Assembly (NCBI GenBank): GCA_025699005.1
Contig: JAILWI010000002.1
Coordinates: 303,246-367,245, forward strand
Direction: 5' to 3'
DNA from: Chloroflexota bacterium
GTDB lineage: Bacteria; Chloroflexota; Limnocylindria; QHBO01
DNA: 64,000 bases
Made by a program: the position numbers and the translations under genes
The notes under the pieces: model-generated
Database searches by the model: none
What the model saw: the letters and a program-made list of their open reading frames with translations, nothing else
What the model was told of the DNA's origin: nothing
In this document: one piece after another, positions 11,547 through 30,239 of the stretch
Layout: each line of letters opens with the position of its first letter
Numbering within the stretch: the first letter of the stretch is position 1

Positions 11547-11648
11547 CCGTTGGAACCGGGCGATGCCCGCGTGAGCTACGAGGCCATGCCCTTGCTGTAT
11601 CGGCTCGGCGGGCGGTTTCTTCGGCGGGGACCTGGGCCGAACGCGCAC

Positions 11649-12881
11649 ATGACCCTCAGCTCCGTGGCCCTCATCGCGGCCCGCGTCGCAGCGTCGGGCT
11701 TCGGTTTTCTGGCGTGGCTGCTTGCGGCGCGCTTGTTTGCCCCGGCCGAGGTGGGGCTGGCGGCCGGGGCGGTGGCGGCCATGATGCTGGCGGTGCAGAT
11801 CGCACTTGGCGGCTCCGGCTCAGCGGTGATCGCCCTGTTCCCGGGCCGACGCAGCGCCCCATCTCGCCTCTTCGACACGGCGGTCATTGTCGTCACGGTC
11901 GCGGCCCTCGTGGTGGCGATCGTGTTCCTCGTCCTCGCCGCGACCCGCCTCGACGAGCTGCGCGCCATCCCGGCCGATGCCGGCCTCGCCGTGGCGTTCG
12001 TCGTCATGACGCTGTTCGGGACGTTGAACACGCTCTATGACTACGTCTCGGTGGCGATGCGACGCGGAGATCACGTGCTCGTCCGAAACGTGGCCTTCGG
12101 CGTGATGACGCTGGTCGTCCTGGCTCTGGGGGCCGCTTCGGCGCTCGATGGGCCCTTCGCCATCCTGCTCGCGTGGGCGGTGGCGGGCTCCGCGGCGTGC
12201 GCGATTGCCTGGGCCCAGCTGCGCCACGCCGTCGGCTACGTCTTCGCCGCACGGCTCGACCCGGGACTCACGCGCTCGGTCGTCTCGACCGGCGTGCCGA
12301 ATTGGCTTCTCAGTCTGACCGAGCGGCTCCCCGCGCTGATCATGCCGGTGCTCGTGACCGAGCTGATCTCGCCTGAAGCCAACGCGTTCTGGTACGCCGC
12401 CTGGATGATGGCCTGGGTCGTACTGATCATCCCCACCTCCGTCGGGCAGAGCCTGTTCGCCGAAGCGGTCCACCGGCCCACTGAGATCCGGGAAGTCGTC
12501 CGTCATGGAACACGGACCGCTCTCCTGCTCGGCATCAGCGCCGCGGGGGGGATGCTGCTGCTCGCCGAGCTCGCCCTCGGCCTGCTGGGAGCGCAGTACA
12601 GCGCCGAGGGCGCGCTGCCGTTGCGCATTCTCGTCCTCAGCGTTGTGCCCTTCACGATCGTCCAGGCGTACTACGCCGTGAGCCGCGCCCTTGGACGCCT
12701 GCCCGAAGCCATCATCACCGGCGCGATCGGCGGCGCGGTCGCGGTCGCGGCCGCGGTCAGCGCCGGCATCGGGGGCGGGCTGGTGGCGATGGCCGCCGCC
12801 TGGCTGGCGTTCCAGTGCGCCCTCGGGGTGTGGGCCGCATGGCGCTTGAGCCGGATCAGCGCGGCGGTTTCGGACACCTGA
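11649..12881 (+). CDS. polysaccharide flippase (Wzx/MOP superfamily-like), about 12 TM
   Basis: Highly hydrophobic with multiple TM helices throughout. Position after the GT2 genes. An alternative TTG start at 11550 would give 443 aa. Confidence 0.6.
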   Translation: MTLSSVALIAARVAASGFGFLAWLLAARLFAPAEVGLAAGAVAAMMLAVQIALGGSGSAVIALFPGRRSAPSRLFDTAVIVVTVAALVVAIVFLVLAATRLDELRAIPADAGLAVAFVVMTLFGTLNTLYDYVSVAMRRGDHVLVRNVAFGVMTLVVLALGAASALDGPFAILLAWAVAGSAACAIAWAQLRHAVGYVFAARLDPGLTRSVVSTGVPNWLLSLTERLPALIMPVLVTELISPEANAFWYAAWMMAWVVLIIPTSVGQSLFAEAVHRPTEIREVVRHGTRTALLLGISAAGGMLLLAELALGLLGAQYSAEGALPLRILVLSVVPFTIVQAYYAVSRALGRLPEAIITGAIGGAVAVAAAVSAGIGGGLVAMAAAWLAFQCALGVWAAWRLSRISAAVSDT

Positions 12882-13034: not shown

Positions 13035-14996
13035 GTGCGCACGAAGAGCCTTCCCATTTCCGTCCGCGCGACCCCGCGCACCCCTCGCGGTCCTCGTGCA
13101 CCGCGTCCGAACTCCCCCCCGAATCGCGTTGCCACCATCCTGGCCACAGCCATCATGCTGCTCGGTCTGCCGGCCGCAGTCGTCCCGTTCGGCGGGACGC
13201 TGGCAGCGGGCCCTAACCTCACCCTGACGCCCGCCGAGGCGGCCCCCGGCCAGGTAGTCGTCATTCGTGGACAGGCATTTGACCCAGGAGCCAAGGGGCA
13301 GCTGACCGCATCCGACTCCGCACTGCGGCTACCATCGTATCGTGCCGACCGTCGCGGACAGTTCTCCGTCCAATTCACCGTCCCCAGCATGAGCCCCACC
13401 ACCGTGTCGATCTCCGCAATGTCGCGCGTCACGGGGAAGAAGGCGGTTACGACCTCTGCTCAGATCCTGGCCACGGCCGTGCTGACGGTGGTGGTGCCGG
13501 CGTCAAGCCTGCCGCCCGCCGGATCCACCTCGACGCCGGTCGCGGCGAGCCCGAGCTCGAGCGCGACCGCCGCGCCATCCGGCAGCGCGACGGCCAGTGC
13601 CACCGCGTCAGCGCAGCCCTCCACGAGCGCCACTCCGTCGAGCTCGGCCACGCCGGGGACTCCGGGGACGAGCCCATCTGCCACGGCATCGACTGCCCCC
13701 GCATCGCCTGCCCCCACGGCGGCGCCGGTCACGCCGCAGCCGACCACACCGCCCCCCGCGGTCGCGGGTGCGTTCTACGTATCGACGACGGGGAACGACG
13801 GGGGGACCGGCTCCATCGATCGACCGTATCGAACGATCGCCCGCGCTGCCTCCGTCGTTCCGGCGGGAAGCACCGTGATCATCCGCGGCGGCACCTATGC
13901 CGGCTTCGAGGTCACCCGGTCGGGTCTCACCTTCAAGGCGTACCCCGGTGAGGTGGTCGTGGTCGCCGATGGGACGCGCGACGACGTCATCAAGTTCGAC
14001 GGCGTCTCTGGCGGCCAGATCAACGGCCTGATCGTCCAGGGATCCGTAATCCAGTACGGATCCGGTATCAAGATCAAGGAGTCGAGCGGCGTGAGCGTCA
14101 TCGGCTCAACGGTCCGCAACAACAAGACCTTCGGAATCGTGGTCGTGCGCTCGACGTCGGTGCGCCTCGAGGCCAACGACGTGTACGGCAACGCCAACGG
14201 CATCGAAGAGCGCTACGCCGACAAGCTCGTCATCACCGGTAACAAGATCCACGACAACACGACGCCCGTTGACAGCGGCCGCGGAGCCCAGGGCATCAAC
14301 TTCTACAAGTCCACGGGCTCGGTCACCGTGACCGGCAACTCCCTCTGGAACAACGGGACCCACTTCGAGGTCTACGGGGCCAGCAATCTGCTCATCAGCG
14401 GCAACGTGACCTGGAACGGCCAGATCATGGAGACCGGCACCGATGGGCCGCCCTGCGACAACAACCGCTACATCCGCAACATCGGCTACCGCGGTGCCGG
14501 CTTCAACGGCATCGCCAACGGCATGATCCTGCGCTGCGCGTCGAACAACCTGATCGCGCACAACACGCTCCAGGGCTTCGACCAGTTCGCCTTCGACGTC
14601 GTCGATGGCACGCAGGGCGTCGCGTACGGCGGCTCGATCGCCGGCCTCCGCATCGTGAACAACATCGCGGTTGGAGGCCGAGCCTTCAGCATCGACAACA
14701 CCCTGCCGGCTTCGGTGGTCATCGACCACAACCTCGTCTACAACGTGGGATCGACGGCCGTTTACGGCCACCATCTCGCGTACGTGGCCGGGAAGGGCAA
14801 CACATCGTCACTCGACACCTTCCGGTCGTGGACCGGACAGATGGCCAACGGCATCTTCGCCGACCCGAGGTTCGTCGACGGCGCCAACCGCGACTACCGG
14901 CTGCGGGCCGATTCGCCCGCCATCGATCGCGGCCAGGTCGTCCTGAGCGACGGGATGACTGGCGCGGCGCCGGACCTCGGTCGCTACGAGCGTTGA
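13035..14996 (+). CDS. secreted right-handed parallel beta-helix repeat protein (pectate-lyase-like fold) with Pro/Ser/Thr-rich linker
   Basis: GTG start. N-terminal hydrophobic signal-like segment and a long PST-rich linker. Repeated PbH1-like units (NNKTFGIVVVRSTSVRLEANDVYGNANGIEERYADKLVITGNKIHDNT; SLWNNGTHFEVYGASNLLISGNVTWNG). Confidence 0.65.
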   Translation: MRTKSLPISVRATPRTPRGPRAPRPNSPPNRVATILATAIMLLGLPAAVVPFGGTLAAGPNLTLTPAEAAPGQVVVIRGQAFDPGAKGQLTASDSALRLPSYRADRRGQFSVQFTVPSMSPTTVSISAMSRVTGKKAVTTSAQILATAVLTVVVPASSLPPAGSTSTPVAASPSSSATAAPSGSATASATASAQPSTSATPSSSATPGTPGTSPSATASTAPASPAPTAAPVTPQPTTPPPAVAGAFYVSTTGNDGGTGSIDRPYRTIARAASVVPAGSTVIIRGGTYAGFEVTRSGLTFKAYPGEVVVVADGTRDDVIKFDGVSGGQINGLIVQGSVIQYGSGIKIKESSGVSVIGSTVRNNKTFGIVVVRSTSVRLEANDVYGNANGIEERYADKLVITGNKIHDNTTPVDSGRGAQGINFYKSTGSVTVTGNSLWNNGTHFEVYGASNLLISGNVTWNGQIMETGTDGPPCDNNRYIRNIGYRGAGFNGIANGMILRCASNNLIAHNTLQGFDQFAFDVVDGTQGVAYGGSIAGLRIVNNIAVGGRAFSIDNTLPASVVIDHNLVYNVGSTAVYGHHLAYVAGKGNTSSLDTFRSWTGQMANGIFADPRFVDGANRDYRLRADSPAIDRGQVVLSDGMTGAAPDLGRYER

Positions 14997-15182: not shown

Positions 15183-17663
15183 GTGCCATCGCGCTCTCGT
15201 TCCGCTCGCCCAGGGTCACGCCTGACCTCGCTCCTGGCGTGCCTCGTCGTGGCCGGAACGATCCTGGCTGGGCTGACCCCCGGCCGAGCGGCCGCGAGCT
15301 CGGACGTTGGATACAGCGGTCCGTCGTACGGTACGGCATCGGCACCCACCGGCCAGAAGCCACAGAGCAAGCTGTGGTGGAACGACGGCCTGTGGTGGGG
15401 GAGCCTGTTCTCGGCCACGGTGAGGGACTTCACGATCCACCGGCTGGACTGGGCGTCGCAGCGCTGGATCGATACGGGCGTCGTCATCGACGAGCGGAGC
15501 CGGTCACAGGCCGATGCGCTGTGGGATGGCTCACGCCTGTGGGTCGCGACAGCTCAGCGTGAGGGGTCGAAGAGCGGAGACCTGAGCGCACGGATCGTGC
15601 GCTTCTCCTATGACGCGACGACGCGGACGTACAGCCGAGATTCGGGGTTCCCGGTCACCGTGTGGACGGGCGCCATCGAGGCCATGGTGCTGGACAGGGA
15701 TTCCACCGGGATGATTTGGGTCACGTGGACCTCGGAGAATGGGAGCGGCGGTCGCAACGTGTACCTCACCCACTCGACCGGCCCGAACACCTTCCGCAGC
15801 GCCTACATCCTGCCGCTGCCCCAGGCAACGACCCTGGACGCCGACGACATCTCCACGTTGGTGTCGTACAACGGGAAGATCGGCGTCATGTGGAGCAACC
15901 AGACCGAGTCGTCGGTCTACTTCGCCTCGCACGTGGACGGAACCTCGGACATGAGCTGGACGCTCAATCCCGCGCTCCAGGGCCCCAAGTACGCCGACGA
16001 CCACATCAACATCAAATCGCTCCAGGCCGATGCGTCGGGCCAGGTCTTCGCTGTCGTGAAGACGTCGCTGAACGATGTGAACCCGCCGACGTCGAGCCAG
16101 CCCCTGATCCTGGTGCTCACGCTCGACAACAACGGATCGTGGAAGCGCACCACGTTCAGCCGCGTCTCGGACAATCACACGCGCCCCCTGCTGTTGATCG
16201 ACAACGAGAACCGGCAGCTGTACGTGTTCGCCGCGTCGCCGTGCTGCAGCGGAGGCGTCATCTACTACAAGCAGACCTCGCTCGACAATCCGAGCTTCGC
16301 GCCGGGCATCGGCTCCCCGTTCATCCGCCTGGCCAGCGACACGACGATCAACAATCCGACGTCGACCAAGCAGGCTCTGTCGACCGCCACGGGCCTGGTG
16401 GTGCTTGCGGGCGATGATCGGACGAGCCGCTACGTGCACAACGCCATCAGCCTCGGTGGCGGCGACATCACGCCGCCCGCCGTCACGTCGACCGCGCCCG
16501 CGGGAGGCGCCACCGGGGTCGCCGCCTCGACCTCGGTCACCGCGACCTTCTCCGAGGCGATCGCGCCCGCCAGCGTCACGCCGTCGACGTTCACCCTCTC
16601 CGGTCCGGGAGGTCCGGTCGCGGCGAGCGCGAGCCAGGGTCCCGGGGCACAGACGGCGACGCTCACGCCGAGCACTGCGCTTCTCGCGAGCACGACGTAC
16701 ACGGCCACGCTGCGGGGAGGGTCCGGAGGCATCACGGATCTCGCCGGCAACGCGCTGTCCTCCGACGTCACCTGGAGCTTCACGACCGGAGCGCCGGTCG
16801 ACACCACGCCGCCCACGGTCAGCCTCAGCGCCCCGGCTCAGGGGGCAACGGTGAGCGGGGTCGTCACGATCTCAGCGTCGGCGTCCGACGACGTGGGCGT
16901 CACGCGGGTCGACTTCCTGGTTCGCGGAGTGCAGGTCGGGAGCGATCCATCGGCTCCCTACGAGTTCACGTGGGACTCGACGACCGTGGCCGACGGCGCC
17001 GCCGTGATCACGGCTCGGGCGATCGATGCGGCCGGCAATGCGGCCACGTCGAGTGCGTCGGTGACGGTCGCGAACGCACCGACCGGCGCCCTGTTCAGCG
17101 ACGGATTCGAGAGCGGCTCATTCGCGGCGTGGACCCAGGTGCGGACCGGGGCCGATGGGACGGCGACGGTGCAGTCGCAAACCGTGCGCACCGGCTCCTT
17201 CGCCGCCAGGCTCACCAGCACCTCGGCAACGGGCTCCTACGCGTACGCCCGCAGCACGCTCGACACGAGCCAGACCGCCCTCACCGTGAGCGGGGACTTC
17301 CAGGTCACCCAGGCCGGTGCGTCGAACGCGAACGTGCCGATCCTTCGCCTGTTCGATGCGTCGGGCGCGCGCGTCCTGAGCCTGTACCGGCAGAACGGGA
17401 CGAGCGACCAGATCTGGGTATGGGATGCCTCGGGCTATCGCGCCACCACAGGCCGCCTGCCCCTCGGGACGTGGGGCCGCCTGGACCTCGTCGTCACGGC
17501 CGGTGGGACGGGCAGCAGCACCGTGGAGGTGCGCCTCGATGGCGTCGTCGTGAACCGCACGACGACGGCCACTGTGCCCGCCATCAGGACTATCCAGATC
17601 GGAAACGAGACCACGAAGCAGGCCGGATCGATCGTGGTCGACAACGTGATGGTGACCAACTGA
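15183..17663 (+). CDS. secreted multidomain protein: N-terminal propeller-like domain (WWNDGLWWG motif, BNR-like strands), tandem bacterial Ig-like domains, C-terminal concanavalin/lectin-like domain
   Basis: GTG start and signal peptide (LLACLVVAGTILAGLTPGRAAAS). N-terminal domain is paralogous to residues about 430-779 of the 20889-23228 product. Ig-like repeats (DTTPPTVSLSAPAQGATVSGVVTISASASDDVGVTRVDFLV...). C-terminal DGFESGSFAAW...QIGNETTK beta-sandwich. Confidence 0.6.
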   Translation: MPSRSRSARPGSRLTSLLACLVVAGTILAGLTPGRAAASSDVGYSGPSYGTASAPTGQKPQSKLWWNDGLWWGSLFSATVRDFTIHRLDWASQRWIDTGVVIDERSRSQADALWDGSRLWVATAQREGSKSGDLSARIVRFSYDATTRTYSRDSGFPVTVWTGAIEAMVLDRDSTGMIWVTWTSENGSGGRNVYLTHSTGPNTFRSAYILPLPQATTLDADDISTLVSYNGKIGVMWSNQTESSVYFASHVDGTSDMSWTLNPALQGPKYADDHINIKSLQADASGQVFAVVKTSLNDVNPPTSSQPLILVLTLDNNGSWKRTTFSRVSDNHTRPLLLIDNENRQLYVFAASPCCSGGVIYYKQTSLDNPSFAPGIGSPFIRLASDTTINNPTSTKQALSTATGLVVLAGDDRTSRYVHNAISLGGGDITPPAVTSTAPAGGATGVAASTSVTATFSEAIAPASVTPSTFTLSGPGGPVAASASQGPGAQTATLTPSTALLASTTYTATLRGGSGGITDLAGNALSSDVTWSFTTGAPVDTTPPTVSLSAPAQGATVSGVVTISASASDDVGVTRVDFLVRGVQVGSDPSAPYEFTWDSTTVADGAAVITARAIDAAGNAATSSASVTVANAPTGALFSDGFESGSFAAWTQVRTGADGTATVQSQTVRTGSFAARLTSTSATGSYAYARSTLDTSQTALTVSGDFQVTQAGASNANVPILRLFDASGARVLSLYRQNGTSDQIWVWDASGYRATTGRLPLGTWGRLDLVVTAGGTGSSTVEVRLDGVVVNRTTTATVPAIRTIQIGNETTKQAGSIVVDNVMVTN

Positions 17664-17707
17664 GCCGGCGTTCTGGCCGATCGGTCCCGTCCCGCTAAGA
17701 TCGAACC

Positions 17708-19471
17708 GTGAGCGCCCCAGCCATCTCTCGTTCTGAGCGCGTGTCCCGCGTGTTCGCCGTCGATCGGCAGGCGGTCCTCGCGAGCGCGGTTGCGCTCGTG
17801 GCGCTGTTCGTATGGGCGCTCTCGCTCCAGGGGGTCGACCTCGGTCGCATCGACGACTTCGGCCTCATCTCGGCGCTCCCGCTGGCGACGACGCTCTCAA
17901 TGGTGGCGCTGACGGTCAGTTTCGGGCTTGCGGTCCTGGGCGCGCGTCCGAACCGCTTCGTTTTGGCACTTCACGTCGCCGTGCTGCTGCTCATGGTGTA
18001 CGGCCTGCCCTCGATCGTCGAGCCGCTGCCGCGCTTCAGTGTTGCCTGGCGCCACGTCGGGATCGCCGAGGTGCTCACCCGGACGGGCGGCATCGACCCG
18101 TCGGTCAGTGCGTATTTCAGCTGGCCCGGCTTCTTCGCGCTCGCGGGCCTCGTGTCCACCACCATGGGCTGGCAGGACACGATGCCCCTCGTCGGGTGGT
18201 CTCCACTGGCGTTCAACGTCCTGTACCTCGCGCCCGTTGGCATTCTGGCCCAGAGCCTGGTGGCCGATCGTCGCGTCCGGTGGCTCGCCGTGTGGCTGTT
18301 CCTCTCGACGAACTGGATCGGGCAGGACTACTTCTCCCCGCAGGCATTCGGCTTCCTCATCTACCTCTGGATCCTCGCGCTGCTGATCCGGTTCTTTGGC
18401 CGCGAACCAACCAGTTCCTGGCCGGTGCCGGCGAAGTGGCTCCAGCCTGACGTGCCGCCCGTCGAGATCAGCCGTCCCCAGCGTGCCGGACTGCTGGCGA
18501 TCATCTCGGTGCTGTTCTTCGTGCTCGTGGCCTCCCATCAGCTCACGCCGTTTGCCACGCTTGCCTCGATCGTCGTCCTCGTTGCCACCGGCCGGATCTC
18601 GACGGTGACAATGCCGGCGCTCATGGCCGTGCTTCTCGGGGCGTGGCTCAGTTACATGACGGTCACGTACCTCGCGGGCAACCTGAACCAGCTCCTCGAG
18701 AGCATCGGCAGTGTCGACTCGTCGGTCTCGGCGAGCCTGACTGATCGATTGCAGGGATCGCCGCAGCACGTCTTTGTGGCGGTCCTCCGATCTCTGGTGG
18801 CCGTCGCGCTCTGGTCGATCGCCGTTGTCGGCGTTCTTCTGCGCTTCCAGATCGGCCGCCGCGACGTGACGATGGCGCTCCTGGCGTTCATTCCCTTCGG
18901 CCTACTGGCGCTGCAGTCGTACGGTGGAGAGATCCTCCTGCGCATCTTCCTGTTCAGCCTGCCGTTCATGGCCCTGCTGGCGGCCCATGCCCTCGAGATC
19001 ACGGCCAGCGGGAGGCTCACCCGGGTCATGGTCGTTGCGGTGCTCGTCGTGTTCATGGGGGGCTCATTCGTCAGCCGCTACGGCAACGAGCGCATGGACA
19101 TCGTGACGGCCGATCAGATCGCGGCGACCGACGCGCTGTACGAGATCGCTGAACCTGGCTCGCTGCTCGTGGTCGCGGGGGACAACACGTTCTGGCAGTA
19201 TCGCGACTTCGAGCTGCACCGCTATCGGAAGCTCGATCGCGAGGTGGTCGCCGGCGACGTCGACGGCGCGATTGACCGGATCGCGGGGGAGGACCGGCCG
19301 GTCTACGTCATTCTTTCGGATTCGCAGTTCCGCGGGCTCGCGTTGCTGAAGGGAGTCACCGAACGTGAGTGGGCTGCCTTCGAGCGTCGATTTGCGGCGG
19401 ATCCGCGCGTCGAGCGGATCTACGACCAGCCGGCAGCTCGAATCTACCGGTTCGTGCCGGGAGGGTCGTGA
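17708..19471 (+). CDS. large polytopic membrane protein with C-terminal soluble domain (possible GT-C-type glycosyltransferase)
   Basis: 587 aa with about 12-14 TM helices followed by an about 120-aa soluble tail. The architecture is typical of GT-C / DUF2029-like mannosyl- and arabinosyltransferases. First gene of a run of overlapping ORFs. Confidence 0.45.
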   Translation: MSAPAISRSERVSRVFAVDRQAVLASAVALVALFVWALSLQGVDLGRIDDFGLISALPLATTLSMVALTVSFGLAVLGARPNRFVLALHVAVLLLMVYGLPSIVEPLPRFSVAWRHVGIAEVLTRTGGIDPSVSAYFSWPGFFALAGLVSTTMGWQDTMPLVGWSPLAFNVLYLAPVGILAQSLVADRRVRWLAVWLFLSTNWIGQDYFSPQAFGFLIYLWILALLIRFFGREPTSSWPVPAKWLQPDVPPVEISRPQRAGLLAIISVLFFVLVASHQLTPFATLASIVVLVATGRISTVTMPALMAVLLGAWLSYMTVTYLAGNLNQLLESIGSVDSSVSASLTDRLQGSPQHVFVAVLRSLVAVALWSIAVVGVLLRFQIGRRDVTMALLAFIPFGLLALQSYGGEILLRIFLFSLPFMALLAAHALEITASGRLTRVMVVAVLVVFMGGSFVSRYGNERMDIVTADQIAATDALYEIAEPGSLLVVAGDNTFWQYRDFELHRYRKLDREVVAGDVDGAIDRIAGEDRPVYVILSDSQFRGLALLKGVTEREWAAFERRFAADPRVERIYDQPAARIYRFVPGGS

Positions 19472-19472
19472 G

Positions 19473-19853
19473 ATGCCGCTGATCGCGCCGATCGTCATCC
19501 TGGCCTTGACCATGGCTGCCGAGATCGTCGTCCTCGCCAGCGGAGACGGGGTGGTGCGGATGGTGCTCGTGGGCGGCTTCCTGGCGTTTGCCCCCGGGGC
19601 TGCCGCTCTTCGTCCCCTCCAGCTGCCGCTGCAGTCGCTGGCTTGGGCTGGCTTCGCCGTGACGCTCAGCCTCGCAATCACCGGAATCGTGGCCGGAAGC
19701 CTGCTCTACCTGGGTGCATGGTCGGGTGAGCTGGGGGTCACGATTCTGGCACTGATCGTCGTGGTCCTCACGCTGGTCGATCTCCCGACGGTGCGCTCGG
19801 GCGCCCGTGCGCTCGTGCGCATGCTGGGATCGCAGCAGGAGCGAGGCTCGTGA
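19473..19853 (+). CDS. small membrane protein (126 aa)
   Basis: ATG starts 1 nt after the previous stop. 3-4 TM helices. Confidence 0.4.
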   Translation: MPLIAPIVILALTMAAEIVVLASGDGVVRMVLVGGFLAFAPGAAALRPLQLPLQSLAWAGFAVTLSLAITGIVAGSLLYLGAWSGELGVTILALIVVVLTLVDLPTVRSGARALVRMLGSQQERGS

Positions 19854-20095
19854 CCGTCGTCTTCCCCGAGTTCGCGCAGCAGTATGCAGCGAGCTTCACC
19901 TACGACTTTCGCACCACCACCGTCGGGGTCATCGCGGTGATCCTGCTGGTTGTCCTGCTCATCGTCCGCGAGCTCGTGACCGCGTGGCGACTGCCGAGTG
20001 GAGTGCTGAAGCTGGAGCCGATCGACATCGCCATCCCACCTCTGCTGCTGACGTTCGGCGTGGTCGTCCTCGGCCGTTTGGCGGACCTGCTGTGA
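19850..20095 (+). CDS. small membrane protein (81 aa)
   Basis: GTG start overlapping the previous stop. Two hydrophobic helices (VGVIAVILLVVLLIV and IAIPPLLLTFGVVVLG). Confidence 0.35.
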   Translation: MTVVFPEFAQQYAASFTYDFRTTTVGVIAVILLVVLLIVRELVTAWRLPSGVLKLEPIDIAIPPLLLTFGVVVLGRLADLL

Positions 20096-20892
20096 TCGAC
20101 ACCGAGGCCCGCTCGGCGTTCGCACGAGCCGGTCAGCCGTCGGCGGAGGCGGCGGTCACCGTCGCGTACCTCGCAGGCCTGGCCGCGGCCGAACTGACGT
20201 TGGTGGCCGCCGGGCCGATTCCCGGCGCGCTGGCCCATGCGGCGCTCCTCCTCGGCCTGGCCATCCACGCAACGATGCTGCCGGATGCGCCGTACCAGCG
20301 GATGCTCGCCGCTATCACGCTCGCTCCCATGATCCGGCTGCTCAGCCTGCTCCTGCCGATCTCGGGCGTGCCCCCGGTCTTCTCCATCGCGCTCGTCGGT
20401 GGCCTGAGCCTCGTCGGAGTCGCCGTCGCGGTCCGTGTGCTCATGGTGCGATGGGCCGATCTCGGCTTCCGTCGTTTCGACTGGGGCGTTCAGTCGATCA
20501 TCGCCGCTGCGGGCTTTCCCTCGGGCCTGGCGATCTGGGTCGCAGCCCGCCCGTTAGCGGTCGTCCCCGAGCTGAGCATCGAATGGGTCGTGCTGAGCAT
20601 CGTGGTGTTCACCGTCTTCGTCGCCGGTGTCGAGGGCCTCGCATTTCGCGGCCTCATCCAGACCATGGCTCGTGAGCGGTTCGGGACCGTGGCGTCGATC
20701 GCCATCGCAACGCTCGTGCCGTCGGTCCTCCTCCTGAGCGCCCTCGACCCGATCGCGATCCTCCTGCTCACCGCGCTGAACCTGGCGCTGGCTTGGGCCG
20801 TCGACTGGAGCCGATCCACGGTGGGTGCCATCGGCGCCCACGCGCTCGCCCTGTTCGGGATGCTCGTGCTCTGGCCGCTCACTCTCGGATGA
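20092..20892 (+). CDS. CPBP family intramembrane metalloprotease (CAAX protease / bacteriocin-processing family)
   Basis: Polytopic protein with a degenerate EExxxR-like motif (GVEGLAFRGL) and a later His-containing helix (GAHALALFG). GTG start overlapping the upstream stop. Confidence 0.55.
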   Translation: MIDTEARSAFARAGQPSAEAAVTVAYLAGLAAAELTLVAAGPIPGALAHAALLLGLAIHATMLPDAPYQRMLAAITLAPMIRLLSLLLPISGVPPVFSIALVGGLSLVGVAVAVRVLMVRWADLGFRRFDWGVQSIIAAAGFPSGLAIWVAARPLAVVPELSIEWVVLSIVVFTVFVAGVEGLAFRGLIQTMARERFGTVASIAIATLVPSVLLLSALDPIAILLLTALNLALAWAVDWSRSTVGAIGAHALALFGMLVLWPLTLG

Positions 20893-23228
20893 GCACTACG
20901 GGCGACAGGCGCGGCCACCGCCGAAGCCGCCGCATCCTCGTCGGTCTGGTTCTCGGCGCACTGGTGCTCGTCAACGGGGCGCTCATCTGGTACGCCGTGA
21001 GCCGGCTGACGCCGGGCGATTCGGCCACTGCGAGTGCTCTGATCTATGCGCAGGGGAACGTCCGAGCCGGGCCCGGCTCGGCGGCGCCGCAGGTCGCAAC
21101 GATGCTCGGTCGACACAACTTCGACGCGCTGCTGATGCTGGGCGACCAGGTCTCCGGCATGGGAGCCCTCACCGAGTTCGAGGACGAGTATGACCCCGTC
21201 TTCGGCTCGTTCGCCCAGCGGACCCGACCCACACCGGGGGATGGCGAGTACTCGATCCCCGAGGCCCGCGGGTATTTCACGTACTTCACCGACCGAGGCC
21301 GGCACCTCGACCGTCGCCCGTACTACGCCTTCTCCTTCGGCGGATGGCGGCTCTACTCACTGAACTCCGAAATCGCGCATGGCACGCCCGACGCGCCCAT
21401 GTTCCAGTGGCTCTTGTCCGACCTGGAGGCGCGACCCAGCGACTGCATTCTGGCCTACTGGCACGGCGGCCACCGCGCCGACGGTGAGGCAACGGAGGGC
21501 ATGGAGCTGATCGAAACGGTCCTGGCGGCCCGCGGGGCCGAGATCATCCTCGATGCGTCGGAGCGTAACTACCAGCGACACGCGCCGAGATCCGGCGTGA
21601 CTCGCTTCGTCGTGGGCACGGGCGGTGAGGCACTCGAGCCGCTGCCAGCCGCCACGGATGGCGTGGCGTTCGCGGTCGATGACACGCACGGCTCGCTCGA
21701 GCTGGTCCTGCGGCCGGGCGTCGCGCGGTACGGGTTTCGGACCGTTGACGACAAACTGATCGACGAGGGGGAGTTGCGCTGCCAGCCGCCCGACGGTGGC
21801 CCGGACGAGGTCCCGCCCACGCTGCCGACCGACGCGCAGTACGAAGCCGGGGAGACGGGGGACCGGATCACCTGGGGCGCGAGCACCGACGACCGTGGGC
21901 TGCTCGGGTACGTGGTGACCCGCGGCCTCGATCCCGTTGCCTTCACCACCGAGCCGATGATCGACCTCCCGCCGGCGAGCGGTACCGCCGTGTACGGTGT
22001 GGCGGCCATCGATCAAGCGGGCAATCTCTCGGACGCCGTCCGCGCCGCAGGCACCGCCACGACGGCCGGGTTCCGCGACTTCGAGTGGGGGACGCTCGAC
22101 GAGAACCCGGTTGCGCCGACCGCCGACAAGGCCCAGAGCAAGGTGTGGTGGCACGACGGAAGCTGGTGGGGGCTGCTGTTCCGGCCCGGGAGCGCTGACA
22201 CGCGCGGCTTCCACATCATGCGCCTCGATGGGGCCAGTCAGAGCTGGGTCGACACGGGAGCCCGCGCCGATGAGCGCGATCGCAGCCGCGCCGACGTGCT
22301 GTGGGACGAATCGGCGGAGAAGCTCTACATCCTCTCAACGGCCAGGCGTGGGTCGATCAAGCTTTACCGCTACTCGTACGAGTCGGGTGCCTTCGCATTG
22401 GACGAGGGCTATCCGGCGCGTATCAGCGAGGATGGCTCGGAATCGGTGGCGATCGCACGCGACTCGAATGGTGTCCTGTGGGCCACCGCCACGAAGACAC
22501 CCGAGGGCGGTCAGTGCGTCGAGGAGAGTCCATGCACCGTGCAGGTCGCGCACTCGCTCGATCGCGATTTCCGCTGGACGCCATTTACGACACTGCCGTT
22601 CGATCAGGCGACCGTCTCACCCGACGACATCTCGGCGGTCGCGGCCTACGGCGAGGATGAGATTGGCGTCATCTTCTCGAACCAGGCGGTCGGTGGCTTC
22701 TTCTTCGCGAGCCGCGCCGACGACGCGGCGGACGACGAGTGGACGATCGAGGTCATCGAGGAGAATCCGCGCGTCTCGGACGATCACATGAACTTCAAGG
22801 TCGACGCTCAGGGGAGGCCGGTCGTCGTCGGCAAGACATCCCTGAATGATCCGGCGAACGCACCCCCGGACCTCGCCCTGGTCACGCTCTACATTCGGGA
22901 AGGGGAGAACCAGTGGCGACGTGCGACCATCTGGACCGTGGCCGATGACGTCACCCGCCCACAGGTCGTCGTCACGGAGGACGAGATCGTCGCCGTTGCC
23001 GCCTATCCCTCGGGCGGAGGAGCCATCTACGCGAAGCGGGCGCCGCTCACGGATCCCGTGTTCGTTCCTGGCCTCGGGGACCTCCTGATGACCGACGCCG
23101 ACCTCAACAACCCGACGATGACCAAGCAGCTGATCACCGTAGAGATGGGATCGCCCCTGGTCCTAGCCAGCGCCGATGAGACGCGCACGTACTGGCATGC
23201 GGTCGTCGGGTCGGGGCCGCCCGAATGA
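20889..23228 (+). CDS. membrane-anchored calcineurin-like metallophosphoesterase (purple-acid-phosphatase-like) fused to a propeller-like domain (WWHDGSWWG)
   Basis: ATGA overlap with the CPBP gene. N-terminal TM anchor. MPP motifs: LMLGDQVSG, PGDGEY, YYAFSFGGWRLYSLNSE, ILAYWHGGHRAD, VVGTGGE. C-terminal half is paralogous to the N-terminal domain of the 15183-17663 protein (KVWWHDGSWWGLLF..., BNR-like DSNGVLWATAT). Confidence 0.65.
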   Translation: MSTTGDRRGHRRSRRILVGLVLGALVLVNGALIWYAVSRLTPGDSATASALIYAQGNVRAGPGSAAPQVATMLGRHNFDALLMLGDQVSGMGALTEFEDEYDPVFGSFAQRTRPTPGDGEYSIPEARGYFTYFTDRGRHLDRRPYYAFSFGGWRLYSLNSEIAHGTPDAPMFQWLLSDLEARPSDCILAYWHGGHRADGEATEGMELIETVLAARGAEIILDASERNYQRHAPRSGVTRFVVGTGGEALEPLPAATDGVAFAVDDTHGSLELVLRPGVARYGFRTVDDKLIDEGELRCQPPDGGPDEVPPTLPTDAQYEAGETGDRITWGASTDDRGLLGYVVTRGLDPVAFTTEPMIDLPPASGTAVYGVAAIDQAGNLSDAVRAAGTATTAGFRDFEWGTLDENPVAPTADKAQSKVWWHDGSWWGLLFRPGSADTRGFHIMRLDGASQSWVDTGARADERDRSRADVLWDESAEKLYILSTARRGSIKLYRYSYESGAFALDEGYPARISEDGSESVAIARDSNGVLWATATKTPEGGQCVEESPCTVQVAHSLDRDFRWTPFTTLPFDQATVSPDDISAVAAYGEDEIGVIFSNQAVGGFFFASRADDAADDEWTIEVIEENPRVSDDHMNFKVDAQGRPVVVGKTSLNDPANAPPDLALVTLYIREGENQWRRATIWTVADDVTRPQVVVTEDEIVAVAAYPSGGGAIYAKRAPLTDPVFVPGLGDLLMTDADLNNPTMTKQLITVEMGSPLVLASADETRTYWHAVVGSGPPE

Positions 23229-23238
23229 GGTCGGACCG

Positions 23239-24366
23239 ATGATCGTCACGATGCCCGGACCGGTGACCCTGCATATCGCCAGCCACGACGAGCGTGTTCG
23301 GTCGGTGGTCCTGGAGCAGCTCGACCCGTTTCGCGGCGCCGAACCGCCAGAGGGCGCCCCCGCGGACGTTGTGATCGAGGACCTCGATCCGGCCGCCGTG
23401 CGGGTGTCCGAGATGCAGCGGTTGGCGGGGGACGGCTTCGAGACTGTGAGCGACGGCACCAGCCTGTACGCGGTGACCGGCGACACCCTGTGCCGCCTGC
23501 CGGACGCCGCGGGGGACGGGCCGCTCCGGTTCGCCGTCGGCCCCGGATTCCCGCTGCGGCCGATGTTCCGGTCGATGGTTCGCCCGACGCTCCAGGCACG
23601 GATGCTGGATCGCGGTGCCCTGGCGATCCATGGCGCCTGCGTGCATCACGGTGATGGGGCCGTGCTCGTGACCGGGTGGTCGGAGAGCGGGAAGACGGAG
23701 ACGGCGCTCGCCCTGCTGGAGCGGGGTGCGACCTTCGTTTCAGACAAGTGGACCGTGGTGGAGCCCGGGGCGCGCGCAGGGACGTTTCCGGTCGGGGTCG
23801 GGATTCGGCGCTGGATGCTTCCGTACGCCCCCAAGCTCGCGAACCATCTGCCACGCGCTGCTCGGATGCAGCTGACGGGAGCCGGAGTCGCGGGAGCGGT
23901 TTCATCACCGGTCCGCCGCATGCAGCCCCGCGGCCGGCTCGGCCGCTTGCTCGTCGGGACGGTCGATCGGGCGGTGCAGCTGGCCGACCGGGTGGCTCTG
24001 ACGCCGACCGATCTCGCGACGATCTACGGCTCGCCCGGAGATCCGGACGCAACGTGGCCGATCCGCGGCGTCGTCATCCTGCGCACCGTGCCGGGCGACG
24101 AGGTGTCCGCAGGGACGGTCGACGTGAGCGCGATCGCTCGACGGCTGGCATGGTCCGCGATGGTCGAGCGCGCCGAGTTCCACGCCTATCGTCACCGTGC
24201 GGCCTACGCGCTCGCCTGGGGCGAGGACGACCTCGCGCGTCGGATGTTCGACATCGAGTCGTCCCGCATCGGCGCGTTGCTGGCGGAAGTCCCGAGCGTA
24301 GAGGTTGCGGCGCCCTTCCCGATGGACCCCGGTCGCATCGTGGACGCAGCCCTAACAAGACTGTGA
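23239..24366 (+). CDS. HprK/P C-terminal-domain-like P-loop kinase (HprK-related kinase)
   Basis: Walker A-like GWSESGKTETALALLERGATFVSDKWTVV resembles the HprK/P nucleotide-binding loop (GxSGxGKSExALEL...GH.LVaDD). There is no N-terminal HprK domain and no PTS genes nearby. Confidence 0.6.
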   Translation: MIVTMPGPVTLHIASHDERVRSVVLEQLDPFRGAEPPEGAPADVVIEDLDPAAVRVSEMQRLAGDGFETVSDGTSLYAVTGDTLCRLPDAAGDGPLRFAVGPGFPLRPMFRSMVRPTLQARMLDRGALAIHGACVHHGDGAVLVTGWSESGKTETALALLERGATFVSDKWTVVEPGARAGTFPVGVGIRRWMLPYAPKLANHLPRAARMQLTGAGVAGAVSSPVRRMQPRGRLGRLLVGTVDRAVQLADRVALTPTDLATIYGSPGDPDATWPIRGVVILRTVPGDEVSAGTVDVSAIARRLAWSAMVERAEFHAYRHRAAYALAWGEDDLARRMFDIESSRIGALLAEVPSVEVAAPFPMDPGRIVDAALTRL

Positions 24367-25379
24367 GCGCCGGCGATCGGGTGGTGCTCGACACCGAGCC
24401 CGTCCCGGGCGTGCCACTCCGCATCCGGGGAGACGGTGCGGTGGTCGATCACTTCCGCCGTGAGTATGGCTCCGGCGACGTGATCGGCGGTGCCGCGCCG
24501 GCGCTGGACGTGACGTTCGGTGCGGCCCCGGCCGGTGCCACGCCACCGACGATCGTGGGCCGTCACAAGACGGTCGGTTGGAAGGTGTGGCCTCCGCGGC
24601 CCCAGACCGATGATCCCGCCATGGAGATCATGCTGTCCGGTCGGCCGCGCTGGTTCGCGCTCTCGCTCGTGCAGGGGTACATCGTTGAGCCGATGCTCTC
24701 GCTGGCAGCCGCCCGGCGTCGGTCAGTACTGCTGCCCGCCGCGGCCATCGCGTCACCCAACGGCGCCGCGGTGCTCGTGGGTCGCTCACGGACGGGCAAG
24801 AGCTCCGTGTGCGCGATGGCCCTGGCGAACGGGCATGCGGTGCTCGGGGACGACCAGGTCGTCATCGATGCCAGCGGGGTCTCGCGGTTCCCGCGCCGTA
24901 TGCGGTTCTACGATGACCTGGAGCGCACGGCACCGTCGGCGTTCCGACGGCTCACGGCGACGCATCGCGCCTCGCTGCTGATCCGGCGTGTCGTGCGAAT
25001 CGGGACTCGCGGCCTGGTTGCGCCGTCACTTGCCGTTCCGGCCGAGGATCTCGGCCAGGTTGCGTGGGGTCCGCTGCCGGCCACACGCGTGTTCTGGATC
25101 GAGCGCGGCGCCAAGGGGGATGCGCTCCACCGTCGCGACCTGTCCCTCGACGAGCTGCTCGACGCGTCCTCGGCGATTCTGGCCGCGCAGCGCCAGGCGC
25201 TCGGCGCATGGACGGACCAGGCACCGAGCGTGAGCCTCAGAGCGATCGGCGACGGCGAGCGGGCAACGCTCGCCGCAGCGTTCGCCGACGCATCGCTCGA
25301 GCGCCTCGCGATTCCCGACGCGTGGGACGCGTCGAGATCCGTGCGGGAGGTGGCGCGGGTGGTTGGTGTTGCGTCGTGA
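24363..25379 (+). CDS. HprK/P C-terminal-domain-like P-loop kinase (second paralog)
   Basis: GTGA overlap with the previous gene. VLVGRSRTGKSSVCAMALANGHAVLGDDQVVID closely matches the HprK/P P-loop plus the downstream GH..DD segment. Confidence 0.6.
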   Translation: MSAGDRVVLDTEPVPGVPLRIRGDGAVVDHFRREYGSGDVIGGAAPALDVTFGAAPAGATPPTIVGRHKTVGWKVWPPRPQTDDPAMEIMLSGRPRWFALSLVQGYIVEPMLSLAAARRRSVLLPAAAIASPNGAAVLVGRSRTGKSSVCAMALANGHAVLGDDQVVIDASGVSRFPRRMRFYDDLERTAPSAFRRLTATHRASLLIRRVVRIGTRGLVAPSLAVPAEDLGQVAWGPLPATRVFWIERGAKGDALHRRDLSLDELLDASSAILAAQRQALGAWTDQAPSVSLRAIGDGERATLAAAFADASLERLAIPDAWDASRSVREVARVVGVAS

Positions 25380-26302
25380 TGGTCCCCTGGCATTTCTCCG
25401 TCGTGTTCGTCGTCCTGGGCGCTGTCCTGACCGCGTGCCAGTCCTCGAGCGCACCGACGCCACAGGCCACGGTCAGCCACGCGGCGACGACACCGAGCAT
25501 GGAGCCCGCCACGCCGCCGCCGTCGGGAAGCACGGTGCCGGCGCGTCCGAGCCGCGTGTTCGCGGTCGGCGACATGGCGAGCGACAACGATCGAGACGAG
25601 CGGGTCGTGAACATGATCGAATCCCATGATCCGGACGCCCTGCTGGCGCTGGGCGATCTCGTCTACCCCGACGGGACGATCGAGAACTACAGCGCGTTCT
25701 ATGCGACGAGCTACGGCACCTTCGACGGCATCGTGTGGCCGACGCCGGGCAACCACGACTACGTGGAGGACGACCTCTCCGGCTACCGCGCGTACTTCGG
25801 CACGCACGCGCCGCACGTGCCGGATGCGCCGTACTACGAGTTCGAACTGGGCGGCTGGCATTTGTTCGCGCTCAACTCGGAGATCGGCGAGGGTGAGGCG
25901 GGCAGCGACCAGTACGCGTGGCTCGAGGAGCGCTTGGAGGGCCGGGACGAGGCCTGCGTGGCGGCGTACTGGCACTCGCCGGTGTACACCATCGGCCGCA
26001 AGCCGTTCGACGAGGACGGCATGCTCGAGCTGCTGGAGCTGCTGATGGAGCACGACGTCGATCTCGTGCTGACCGGCCACGACCACAACTACCAGCGCTG
26101 GGAGCTCGACGGGCTCGCGTACTTCGTGGTCGGCACAGGGGGCCGATCGCGATACGACCTCGAGCGGACCGATGACCGCGTGATGGCCGCCACGGATGAC
26201 GAGAACGGAGCCCTCGAGTTGGTGCTCGAACCCGGCGGCGCGGCCTTCCGGTATTTCACCATGAGGGACGAGATCTTCGACCGGGGCAGCATCACCTGCT
26301 GA
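25379..26302 (+). CDS. calcineurin-like metallophosphoesterase lipoprotein (purple-acid-phosphatase-like)
   Basis: Start overlaps the upstream stop. Lipobox LTAC after the signal peptide. MPP motifs GDMASDND, GDLVYPDG, GNHDY, LTGHDHNYQR, VVGTGG. Confidence 0.7.
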   Translation: MVPWHFSVVFVVLGAVLTACQSSSAPTPQATVSHAATTPSMEPATPPPSGSTVPARPSRVFAVGDMASDNDRDERVVNMIESHDPDALLALGDLVYPDGTIENYSAFYATSYGTFDGIVWPTPGNHDYVEDDLSGYRAYFGTHAPHVPDAPYYEFELGGWHLFALNSEIGEGEAGSDQYAWLEERLEGRDEACVAAYWHSPVYTIGRKPFDEDGMLELLELLMEHDVDLVLTGHDHNYQRWELDGLAYFVVGTGGRSRYDLERTDDRVMAATDDENGALELVLEPGGAAFRYFTMRDEIFDRGSITC

Positions 26303-26350: not shown

Positions 26351-26600
26351 ACAAACCGGGACCGATCTGCACATCATCGGCCCACGTCGGATGAGACGCC
26401 GGGTGCACTCCGAGCACACCAGGCGACGGGGGAACCGACACGGAGGATAGGGACCGTGCATCGCCCGAGGATGCGCCGTACCGGCTCTCTCGCTGCTGCG
26501 GCGAACGATCCGCGCGACCTGGGAAGCATCGGCTGACCATGCCTCGCATGCTGCCCGCCAGGCCGTTCCGAACCAGCATCCACCATCCGGTGACTGCGTG

Positions 26601-29600
26601 ATGGCAGGCATCGTCCGCTGGAGCCTACGCTTCCGCCGGCTCGTCGTGGCACTCGCCGCGGTCACGATCATCTTCGGCTTCACCCAGCTGTCGAGCGCGC
26701 CGGTCGACACCCTGCCCGAGTTCTCGCCACCGTACGTGGAGGTGCAGACCGAGGCCCTGGGCCTGTCCGCCGAGGAGGTGGAGCAGCTCATCACCGTGCC
26801 GCTCGAGGCCGACCTGCTCAACGGCGTGGCGTGGCTGGACAAGATCGAGTCGCAGTCCGTCCAGGGCCTCTCGTCGATCGTGATGACCTTCGAGCCAGGC
26901 ACGGACCCGATCCGCGCCCGGCAGGTCGTGGCGGAGCGCCTGACCCAGGCCCACGCCCTTCCGAACGTCTCCAAGCCGCCGGTCATGCTGCAGCCGCTCT
27001 CGTCGTCGAACCGCGTGCTGATGATCAGCCTGACGTCGGACGAGCTGTCGCTGATTGACATGTCGGTGCTCGCGCGCTGGACCGTCAAGCCGCGACTGCT
27101 CGGTGTCCCCGGGGTGGCCAACGTGTCCATCTGGGGCCAGCGGGAGCGCCAGCTCCAGGTCCTCGTCGACCCGCATCACCTGCAGGCGGCGGGCGTGTCC
27201 CTCGACGAGGTGGTCGAGACGGCCGGCAACGCGCTGTGGGTCTCCCCCTTGAGCTTCCTCGAGGCCTCGACCCCCGGCACGGGCGGCTTTATCGACACCC
27301 CGAACCAGCGGCTCGGGGTGCAGCACGTGCTGCCGATCGACTCGGCCGATGACCTCGCCCAGGTCACGGTCGCCAGCGAGGACGCCCGGTACCGCCTAGG
27401 GGACGTCGCCACGGTGGTGGAGGACCATCAGCCGCTCATCGGCGACGCCATCGTCGGCGAGGGCGACGGCCTGCTTCTCGTCGTCGAGAAGTTCCCCGGC
27501 ACCGACACCCTGACCGTCACGCGCGACGTCGAGGACGCCATGGCGGCGCTCGCGCCCGCGATCACCGGGATCGACGTGGACACCACGCTCTTCCGGCCGG
27601 CGACGTTCCTGGAGCAGGCGCTCGACAACGTCACGCTGGCCATCCTCATCGGCCTCATCCTGGCGATCGCCGTGATCACGGCACTGCTCCGCGACTGGCG
27701 TGCGGGCGTGGTCAGCCTGGTCACGATTCCGCTGTCGCTGGTGCTCGGGGGCCTCGTGCTCCTGGCGCTCGGCGCGACGTTCAACGCCATGGTCGCCGCA
27801 GGCCTCGTCGTCGCGCTCGCCATCGTCATCGACGACACGGTGACGACGAGCGCCAGCATCAGGGCACGCGCCGATGGGGCCTCCGGCGGCACGGACGAGG
27901 CGTCGACCCTCGCGCGCACCGTGCGCGGCGTGATCGCCGTCCGCGGCACCACCTTCTACACCCTGGTGGTGCTCGGACTGAGCGTCATTCCGCTGTTCTT
28001 CGTCGGCTCGGAGCTGGGGGCCATGCTCCCGTCGCTCGCCACGGCGCTCATCGTCGCCCTGCTGGCGTCGGTGCTCGTTTCGATCACGGTCGCCCCGGCC
28101 CTGGCCTTCATGCTCGGCAGTGGCCGCCCCGCGCCGGCGCGCGAGACGCGCCTCATCGCCCGCGGGCAGGCCGCCTACGGCACCACGCTGACCCGCGTGC
28201 TCGATCGGTCGAGGCCGATGCTCCTGGGGGTATCGGCCGTCGCCGTGGTCGCCGTCCTCGGCTTTGGCGCATGGGTCGCCCCCGGCGTCGCGAGCTCGGC
28301 CACGCCGGAGTTCCGCGATCGCAACATTCTGGTCCACTGGGACGGCGCGCCCGGATCCTCACACGGGGCCATGCGCCGCATCGTGGCGGAGGCCAGTGCC
28401 GACCTGCGCGCCATCCCGGGCCTCGAGAACGTCGGGGCCCACATCGGGCGGGCCATTTTCTCCGACCAGGTGGGAGGCATCAACGACGGCGATATCTGGC
28501 TGACCATCGCGCCCGACGCCGACTATTCGGCGACGGTGGCCGCGGTCGAGCAGGTGGTCGCCGGGTTCCCCGGCATGAGCCGGGGGGTGGCAACCTACGG
28601 CGCCGATCGCGTGGAGCAGATCGTGGGCACGGAGACCGACGACATCGTGGTCCGCGTGTACGGCGAGGATCAGGCGGTCCTGGGGACGCAGGCAGATGCG
28701 GTGCTCGGTGCCGTGCGCACCATTCCGGGCGTTGCGGAGGCGCGCATCGACGCCCCGACCATGGAGCCGACCGTTCGGATCACCGTTGACCTCGCGGCCG
28801 CCGAGCTCAATGGCCTGACGCCCGGCGCCGTGCGCCGGACGGCGACGACTCTGCTCTCGGGCCTGGAGGTCGGCAGCCTCTTCGAGGGCCAGAAGGTCTT
28901 CGAGGTCGTGGTCTGGGGCGTCCCCGCACTGCGGGAGAATCTCTCGACCATCCAGGCCCTGCCGATCGAGACGTCCACCGGCCGGATGGTGACCCTCGCT
29001 GACGTCGCCGACATCGAGATCGCGCCGGCGCCGGTCAGCATCTATCGCGAGGGCGTGCAGCGCGTGCTCGACGTCGCCATCTCGGTGGCGGGTCGTGACG
29101 TCGGCGGCGTGCTGCGCGATGTCGAGACGGCCCTGGCCGGCGTGGCGTTCCCCGTGGAGACGCACGCCGAGGTGCTGGGCCTCACCGCGGAGCGCTCGGC
29201 TCAGCAGGGCGCGCTTCTCGCCGTGGGAGCGGCGGCCCTCATCGGCATCCTGCTCGTGCTCCAGGCCGCGCTCGTCAGCTGGCGTGTCGCGGCGCTCGTG
29301 CTCCTCAGCCTGCCGGCGGCACTGTCGGGCGGCATCGTGGTGGCGCTCGTGTTGGGCACGCAGGCCACGTTCGGGGCACTGCTCGGGCTGCTGGCGGTGC
29401 TCGCCATCGCCGTGAAGCAGGCGCTGCTGCTCATGGACCATTACCGCGACCTCGAGGCCGGCGGAGCGACGCGGGACGAGTGGCTCGTGATCCGGGGAGC
29501 CCGGGAGCGAATGGTGCCGACGGTGACCACCGCGCTCGCCGTCGCGGCGGCCCTGGTGCCGTTCGCGATCCTCGGCAACCAGGCGGGAGCCGAGATCATT

Positions 29601-29762: not shown

Positions 29763-29763
29763 G

Positions 29764-30207: not shown

Positions 30208-30239
30208 GCAAACCCCGCACGAAGGACGCGGTCCCCGCC

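Follow-up and report, generated by a model that had tools for sequence, protein, structure and literature searches.

Paralogous seven-bladed β-propellers of an unnamed family accompany a glycan-assembly gene cassette in Chloroflexota and Actinomycetota

Several described β-propellers act on glycans or bind them. The L-Rha-α-1,4-GlcA lyases/rhamnohydrolases of family PL42 (formerly GH145; FoRham1, 7esk; BT3686, 5muk/5mul; BACINT_00347, 5mum) and the ulvan lyases of PL24 and PL25 are seven-bladed and use a site in the anterior pocket composed of a His as base/acid, a neighbouring His, an Arg neutraliser and a Tyr. The PLL-family lectins (BP39L, 6gxr; PLL, 5c9o; CV39L, 6gxs; PLL5, 8q83) also have seven blades, and in PLL-type lectins the blades are near-identical repeats with multiple binding sites. 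The GH33 sialidases and BNR proteins, with six blades, are recognized by their repeated SxDxGxTW motifs (Asp boxes), an N-terminal FRIP motif and an arginine triad. On the genetic side, PslG, PelA, BcsZ and AlgL are secreted or periplasmic glycan-cleaving proteins encoded inside the biosynthetic operon of the polymer that they trim. Here we analysed a stretch of 64,000 nucleotides from a Chloroflexota bacterium (assembly GCA_025699005.1, contig JAILWI010000002.1, positions 303,246 to 367,245), hereafter called the window, in which two proteins, ProtA and ProtB, share a propeller domain. Both copies prove to be seven-bladed, paralogous members of a large family that has no name, and across Chloroflexota and Actinomycetota the propeller accompanies, as an accessory, a conserved cassette for glycan assembly (GT2, Wzx-like, GT-C-fold, β-helix and phosphoesterase genes). 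The fold is known, as are secreted propellers active on glycans in general; the family, its conserved site and the cassette are not described in the family databases and literature searched.

The open reading frames (ORFs) of ProtA (15183-17663, 826 residues) and ProtB (20889-23228, 779 residues) are both present as described in an earlier note made from the letters of this DNA; coordinates are those of the window, and features lie on the plus strand unless stated otherwise. ProtB is 100% identical to protein K5924_06425 of a metagenome-assembled genome (MAG) at NCBI ('Chloroflexi bacterium'). The homology proposed between parts of the two proteins was examined by BLASTP with composition-based scoring. 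Residues 54-425 of ProtA (copy A, 15342-16457) were aligned with residues 409-776 of ProtB (copy B, 22113-23216) with 38% identity and 54% positives over 394 columns (E 1e-64), and the motifs that had been quoted as shared (QSKLWWNDGLWWG / QSKVWWHDGSWWG and others) were found in both proteins. Since the similarity is long, spans the whole domain and was scored with adjustment for composition, it is not due to low-complexity segments, an objection that the note itself had raised.

No Pfam or NCBIfam model matched the propeller of either protein up to E≤10, and searches of PDB sequences, with a single sequence or with a profile, gave no match. The AlphaFold model of the domain (predicted local distance difference test, pLDDT, 93.5) is a seven-bladed β-propeller of about 28 strands, so that the propeller-like fold suggested earlier stands. 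Its best structural matches are seven-bladed propellers, with only 10-13% sequence identity to the query, and the highest template modelling (TM) score obtained with Foldseek was 0.62, for BT3686. The 'sialidase-like/BNR' label is another matter. The six-bladed 'neuraminidase' entries reached TM scores of 0.46-0.54 (among them the weak matches 3h6j, 4irt and 8gn6), and the sialidases 0.46-0.52. Neither a strict nor a relaxed Asp-box expression found a single match in ProtA or ProtB, where the note had seen repeated BNR-like SxDxGxxW strands; the FRIP motif ([FYW]R[IV]P) is missing from both, and Pfam BNR gave zero matches at E≤10. Both groups are β-propellers, but they differ in blade number and in all of these signatures. 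Loose 'DG..W' turns in some C-D hairpins (e.g. VDGTSDMSW) may have prompted the Asp-box remark.

Conservation was measured on a 270-sequence alignment of the domain, with a cut-off of at least 95% and ProtA numbering. Twenty polar residues pass it: K59, K63, R105, D111, Y143, D173, D222, H250, D272, D273, H274, K293, T294, T333, R334, K363, N390, K396, Q397 and Y417, despite an overall identity of 35-65% among the aligned family sequences. ProtB keeps 19 of the 20. Faces were assigned from the DSSP strand order of the model together with the standard four-strand blade topology. Nineteen conserved residues fall in loop-end regions, 16 of them at D-to-A or B-to-C ends, which belong to one face, and three at the opposite side. 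For blades 3-7 the same-face call depends solely on strand alternation, and for blades 1-2 it depends also on a register set by sequence analogy. On this model, K59, K63, R105, D111, D222, D272-D273-H274, K293, R334, N390, K396-Q397 and Y417 would line a single conserved polar pocket on one propeller face. When the blades were aligned locally against one another, the mean z was 0.19 and the maximum 2.4 against shuffles, i.e. no sequence repeat is detectable. Because the blades do not repeat, the conserved residues amount to one asymmetric ring about the axis of the propeller, as expected of a protein with one active or binding site and not of a repeat lectin with multiple sites.

The reading that we favour, with a confidence a little short of even, is that the propeller is a secreted enzyme which processes the glycan of the cassette by cleaving or trimming it. 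It is supported by how densely the invariant Asp, His, Lys and Arg residues occur and by the structural neighbours, which include propeller lyases and hydrolases. By alignment, the family conserves H274, R334 and Y417, and less strictly H250 and H419, which are candidates for a comparison with the His, Arg and Tyr of the PL42/PL24/PL25 site. The same pocket could instead hold the envelope polymer made by the cassette without cutting it, the propeller being a non-catalytic glycan-binding lectin or anchor that tethers the ProtA modules or the ProtB scaffold, as SLH and other wall-binding domains do. We consider this rather unlikely: lectins are structurally as close to the model as the lyases are, but the near-identical blades of the PLL type have no counterpart here, and an asymmetric Asp/His/Lys/Arg ring with about 20 polar residues at or above the 95% level is more typical of catalysis.

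The proteins that carry the propeller bear on both readings. A phmmer search, exhaustive over 1.84 billion cluster representatives, returned 2,460 clusters at 50% identity with E≤1e-3 and 1,099 with E≤1e-30. In a scan of one genome per species, queried with a trimmed 7-sequence propeller alignment, 478 coding stretches carry the domain. The hosts belong to Chloroflexia, Anaerolineales, Limnocylindria and Thermomicrobiales in the Chloroflexota and, in the Actinomycetota, to Rubrobacteraceae, Solirubrobacterales and Acidimicrobiia as well as to the cultured Kribbella caucasensis, K. orskensis, Georgenia ruanii and Micromonospora sp. CB01531. An unnamed domain, without family model or literature, is present in thousands of proteins of soil Chloroflexota and Actinomycetota, and the cultured hosts (Kribbella, Georgenia, Micromonospora) make its function directly testable. 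The propeller starts at a median residue of 50 in proteins with a median length of 654 residues, a position that fits a signal peptide directly ahead of it. C-terminal partners among the 120 best matches are CBM96 (18), Big_5 (17), RTX (4) and discoidin (2), along with cadherin-like, malectin, SLH, fn3 and Polysacc_lyase-like modules, and PKD-like surface-protein modules also occur in some propeller proteins. Recurrently, the propeller is fused or adjacent to β-helix, phosphoesterase and CBM96 modules; one chain of 2,752 residues (P0300) combines propeller, TIG, β-helix, Metallophos, Big_5 and CBM96.

Such C-terminal partners are typical for secreted carbohydrate-active enzymes, and the layout, with the 'catalytic' domain at the N-terminus and Ig spacers and a carbohydrate-binding module behind it, is a further reason to favour a glycan-cleaving enzyme. 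A lectin would find support in the members with SLH, RTX, cadherin-like or PKD-like modules, and many surface proteins likewise combine a constant N-terminal domain with C-termini that vary; but the frequent fusion to CBM96, discoidin and malectin would then be redundant. As to the substrate, the founding member of CBM96 binds alginate, a polyuronate (PMC9971899). CBM96, Pel9A-like β-helix and phosphoesterase partners hint at an acidic or phosphate-bearing polymer.

In the window, the propeller genes stand with three GT2 glycosyltransferase genes (Pfam Glycos_transf_2 in all three; 7942-8985 on the minus strand, 9677-10699 and 10692-11546) and a Wzx-like flippase gene (Pfam Polysacc_synt, 11550-12881). 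A secreted right-handed β-helix protein (13035-14996; Pfam Beta_helix, E 5e-25, and NosD) is a recurrent partner in the cassette and is encoded directly upstream of ProtA. Directly downstream of ProtA lies a gene for a polytopic membrane glycosyltransferase of GT-C fold with a C-terminal globular domain (17708-19471, 587 residues). It is followed by genes for a small hydrophobic protein of about 126 residues, probably membrane-embedded, and a CPBP/Rce1-like intramembrane protease (together 19473-20892; Pfam Rce1-like for the latter), and then by ProtB, whose start codon shares the sequence ATGA with the stop codon of the protease gene.

This gene order is repeated in four distant MAG loci (L001-L004), which share the succession GT-C, small hydrophobic protein, CPBP protease and ProtB; GT2 and Wzx-like genes also flank the propeller in three of them (L001, L003 and L004). 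The two types occur together in L001, where the A-type copy has 57% identity to ProtA and the B-type copy 53% to ProtB, which indicates that the A/B duplication is old. The β-helix homologues of L001 and L002 carry Pel9A-like_beta_helix. Elsewhere, in L005, the propeller is part of a Wzy/Wzz/BY-kinase/LCP exopolysaccharide locus and adjoins a phosphoesterase. In L007 (384-5513), three tandem propeller paralogues of 348, 580 and 657 residues stand beside a 1,030-residue CBM96/β-helix/Metallophos fusion, and this tandem is a local amplification of the family. The 657-residue protein of L007 had been considered as a GT-C homologue and was rejected as such, since tblastn identified it as the third propeller copy.

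The association was counted in 41 species-representative loci of at least 18 kb, within 10 kb on either side of the propeller. GT2 genes were found in 27 of the 41 loci, Wzx-like flippases in 25, homologues of the GT-C protein of the window in 18, phosphoesterases in 14 and further propeller copies in 12. For a family with few copies per genome, chance would place a member in well under 1% of such intervals, as a rough estimate rather than a computed value. The propeller is tied to a glycan-assembly cassette that is equally unannotated and consists of GT2s, a flippase, a novel GT-C protein and secreted β-helix, phosphoesterase and CBM96 modules. Relative to the GT2, flippase and GT-C genes it has the same position as PslG, PelA, BcsZ and AlgL have in their operons, and this precedent of glycanases in exopolysaccharide operons also favours a glycan-cleaving role; these proteins are TIM barrels or α/α toroids and not propellers, and the activity of the propeller is putative. 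Neither the family nor its conserved site nor the cassette is described in Pfam (2025 copy) or NCBIfam (2026 copy), and family and cassette were not found described in the literature on propeller lyases, CBM96, ScmC/SynChlorMet, new PL families or GT-C proteins with propellers and Chloroflexi.

If the propeller is an enzyme, the following scheme may be proposed. The pocket on one propeller face would be the catalytic site that cuts or trims the glycan made by the cassette, a polymer that is probably acidic or phosphate-bearing. ProtA could be the soluble form, with its Ig-like and C-terminal modules directing it to its target, and ProtB the membrane-tethered form, in which the calcineurin-like domain, having lost its metal site, may be no more than a spacer or a binding module. 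Any hydrolysis of phosphoesters that the cassette may require would be carried out by an intact lipoprotein paralogue encoded downstream, ProtC. A bolder version, which we put forward as tentative, holds that catalysis resides in the propeller, which would found a new family of carbohydrate-active enzymes (lyases or hydrolases) with a His/Asp/Arg/Lys pocket that has no sequence relation to PL42, PL24 or PL25; it would be dedicated to remodelling the product of an undescribed GT2/Wzx/GT-C envelope-glycan pathway common to Chloroflexota and Actinomycetota, and the membrane-tethered versions would carry a phosphoesterase domain that has decayed repeatedly to a pseudoenzyme. An enzyme would mean a new CAZy-type family and would point to an envelope polymer, as yet unknown, of two major phyla of the soil, and a lectin a new wall-anchoring module.

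Several observations weigh against an enzymatic role in the cassette. The one-face clustering of the conserved residues rests on strand order and standard topology rather than on coordinates, with the register of blades 1-2 inferred. The conserved residue that ProtB lacks is H250, replaced by R609 at a position that 95% of the family conserves. No activity, ligand or substrate is on record for any member of the propeller family. About half of the loci have no GT-C homologue inside 10 kb, and the co-occurrence with GT2 is weaker evidence than that with the GT-C homologue, because GT2 genes are very common.

The GT-C protein itself suggests a different relation between the propeller and the cassette. 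Its sequence, identical to the MAG protein K5924_06405 at NCBI, matched no Pfam or NCBIfam model. The AlphaFold model (pLDDT 87.8) has the multi-helix membrane fold of GT-C glycosyltransferases with an AglB-like C-terminal extracytoplasmic domain, which places the protein in this class. Its family comprises more than 1,100 database matches, all labelled hypothetical, and conserves D50 (nearly invariant, just after helix 1) and the motifs NWIGQDYFSPQ, GGEMLLR and RYGNERMD. GT-C enzymes use lipid-linked sugar donors and conserve an acidic residue in the first extracytoplasmic loop, for which D50 is a candidate. Since the model resembles the oligosaccharyltransferases (OSTs) STT3B, AglB and PglB, including the AglB-type C-terminal domain, as well as the protein mannosyltransferases (PMTs), the propeller proteins may be considered as cargo, that is, as surface glycoproteins that are acceptors of the adjacent GT-C, as in a pgl/agl or PMT protein-glycosylation locus. 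The layout of GT2s, flippase and GT-C is like that of such loci. The neighbouring β-helix protein has a linker of about 90 residues rich in Ser, Thr, Pro and Ala ahead of the helix, which could be O-glycosylated and is a candidate acceptor for the GT-C. For the propeller proteins, however, we judge this explanation very improbable. It leaves unexplained the roughly 20 invariant polar residues on one propeller face; ArnT and AftA, which use glycolipid or glycan acceptors, score equally well as structural matches; inspection of the GT-C sequence found no WWDYG-type OST signature; and propeller genes are also found without a GT-C nearby.

The earlier note had described the N-terminal half of ProtB as a membrane-anchored calcineurin-like phosphoesterase and had suggested that, fused to the propeller, it hydrolyses a phosphodiester-linked sugar. 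The anchor and the homology were borne out, and the activity was not. ProtB (degenerate phosphoesterase, Fn3-like domain and propeller) begins with a hydrophobic anchor, and its residues ~51-298 (21039-21782) are homologous to the calcineurin-like family, most orthologues carrying PF00149. With ProtC, the paralogue of this half (25379-26302), residues 68-298 share 37% identity (E 1e-41, with the long ORF 25064-26302). ProtC is matched by Pfam Metallophos (PF00149, E 1.8e-14) and has all five motifs of the purple-acid-phosphatase type intact (GDxx, GDxxY, GNH[DE], H and GHxH, the source of the dinuclear metal site), with 8 of 8 canonical metal/catalytic residues. In ProtB, despite the same motif spacing, motif I reads GN (for GD), II GDQVS (for GDxxY, losing the Tyr), III GDGE (for GNHD) and V ASER (for GHDH), only the WH of motif IV being retained. 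Two of the eight residues remain, and Pfam Metallophos is not matched even at E≤10. As judged from these motifs, the domain is a predicted pseudoenzyme.

The architecture of anchor, phosphoesterase, Fn3-like domain and propeller is kept in about 20 orthologous clusters with 43-48% identity. Among 19 orthologues (P0122-P0140), nine have all eight residues, one has seven and the rest have two to five, with substitutions that differ between lineages. In the intact orthologues the mean identity is 68% for the phosphoesterase domain and 60% for the propeller, against 53% and 57% in the degenerate ones, a pattern which suggests that the phosphoesterase domain was kept as a folded module after losing its catalytic constraint. 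Decay of ProtB as a pseudogene was considered and rejected: its ORF is intact, its identity to the closest relative, P0122, is 77% in the phosphoesterase region and 82% in the propeller, and the architecture is conserved. The loss of the motifs in half of the orthologues while the propeller stays conserved argues that phosphoesterase catalysis is dispensable for the fusion. The repeated decay is a natural example of pseudoenzyme formation inside an otherwise conserved architecture and cautions against inferring function from domain homology alone. The pairing of a propeller with a pseudoenzyme would also fit the binding or scaffold role envisaged for a lectin.

These results bear directly on the proposal that a sialidase-like propeller and a phosphatase in one chain jointly hydrolyse phosphodiester-linked sugars, as in teichoic-acid-like polymers or phosphoglycans. 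The link between propeller and phosphoesterase is real at the level of the family: their fusion is conserved, nearly half of the orthologues keep every catalytic residue, about a third of the loci have a phosphoesterase no more than 10 kb from the propeller, and the intact ProtC is encoded three genes downstream. The ProtB-type phosphoesterase subfamily is fused elsewhere to CBM96, to fn3, to a GH99-like domain and to an NAGPA phosphodiester glycosidase. We nevertheless regard joint hydrolysis as improbable. The dead motifs and the lack of a Metallophos match make it unlikely for ProtB, and it is conceivable for motif-intact orthologues. Half of the orthologues have lost the motifs under a conserved propeller, most family members are of the A type, without a phosphoesterase in the same protein, and the seven blades devoid of Asp boxes and FRIP do not suit a sialidase.

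The two propeller proteins differ in their other domains. ProtA starts with a GTG preceded by a GGAGG-like motif, and its N-terminus reads as a basic and hydrophobic leader ending in AAA/SS. After the signal peptide and the propeller come two Ig-like domains (16464-17015), namely Big_5 at residues 428-535 (Pfam E 2.4e-25) and Big_7 at residues 544-611 (E 3.5e-20), a region that also gave PDB sequence matches to Ig/Fn3-like modules of glycoside hydrolases; a secreted protein with two Ig-like domains was what had been predicted. The concanavalin-like C-terminus predicted with them was not confirmed: for the β-rich C-terminal domain of about 190 residues (17085-17660) a ConA/jelly-roll-like fold is suspected and not established, the matches being sub-threshold only (Pfam Polysacc_lyase, E 0.018 over 40 residues; NCBIfam NTTRR-F1, E 0.0027). 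In ProtB, the linker at residues ~309-388 (21813-22052) is Fn3-like by a weak PDB match to the FnIII domain of chitinase A1 (E 0.0056), and distant phosphoesterase relatives recovered with ProtB (e.g. P0141, P0142 and P0147) carry Pfam fn3. From the leader of ProtA and the anchor of ProtB, both proteins are predicted to be extracytoplasmic. A C-terminal sorting signal dependent on the CPBP protease was considered for ProtA and ProtB and rejected, as neither ends in a hydrophobic helix with a basic tail.

Between the GT-C gene and ProtB, a mechanically called ORF (19807-20892, 361 residues) probably merges the small gene, whose product gave no Pfam match, with a CPBP gene of about 270 residues, because the NCBI locus-tag numbering implies three genes. 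In other loci, two small ORFs occupy this interval. Downstream of ProtB, two HprK/ScmC-like P-loop proteins, conserved members of the cassette, are encoded (23176-24366 and 24402-25379; Pfam Hpr_kinase_C, E 6e-6, and NCBIfam HprK_rel_B, E 7e-8, the second copy being weak). Their relatives are otherwise linked to peptide-maturation cassettes. By tblastn, the first one has a homologue at the equivalent position of L001 and of L002. The records of L001 and L007 bear a ScmC-like annotation (PF27840) that is weak or faint, and 8 of the 41 loci have homologues no more than 10 kb from the propeller. ProtC is probably a lipoprotein, with an ATG at 25379 and an LTAC lipobox whose Cys is residue 125 of the long ORF. 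This ATG and the stop codon of the HprK-like gene before it overlap, suggesting co-transcription with the cassette.

Beyond the cassette, two large RND (AcrB-family) transporters and a cysteinyl-tRNA synthetase are encoded downstream (26451-33377 on the plus and 37799-39361 on the minus strand). The same RND-transporter and cysteinyl-tRNA synthetase neighbours recur in L002, so that the synteny with this locus reaches beyond the cassette. The window has a G+C content of about 69%. Upstream, it contains a pentose-phosphate operon (612-4254) for glucose-6-phosphate dehydrogenase, OpcA and 6-phosphogluconolactonase, which is unrelated to the propeller finding, and a PAP2-domain protein at about 5199-5592 on the minus strand.

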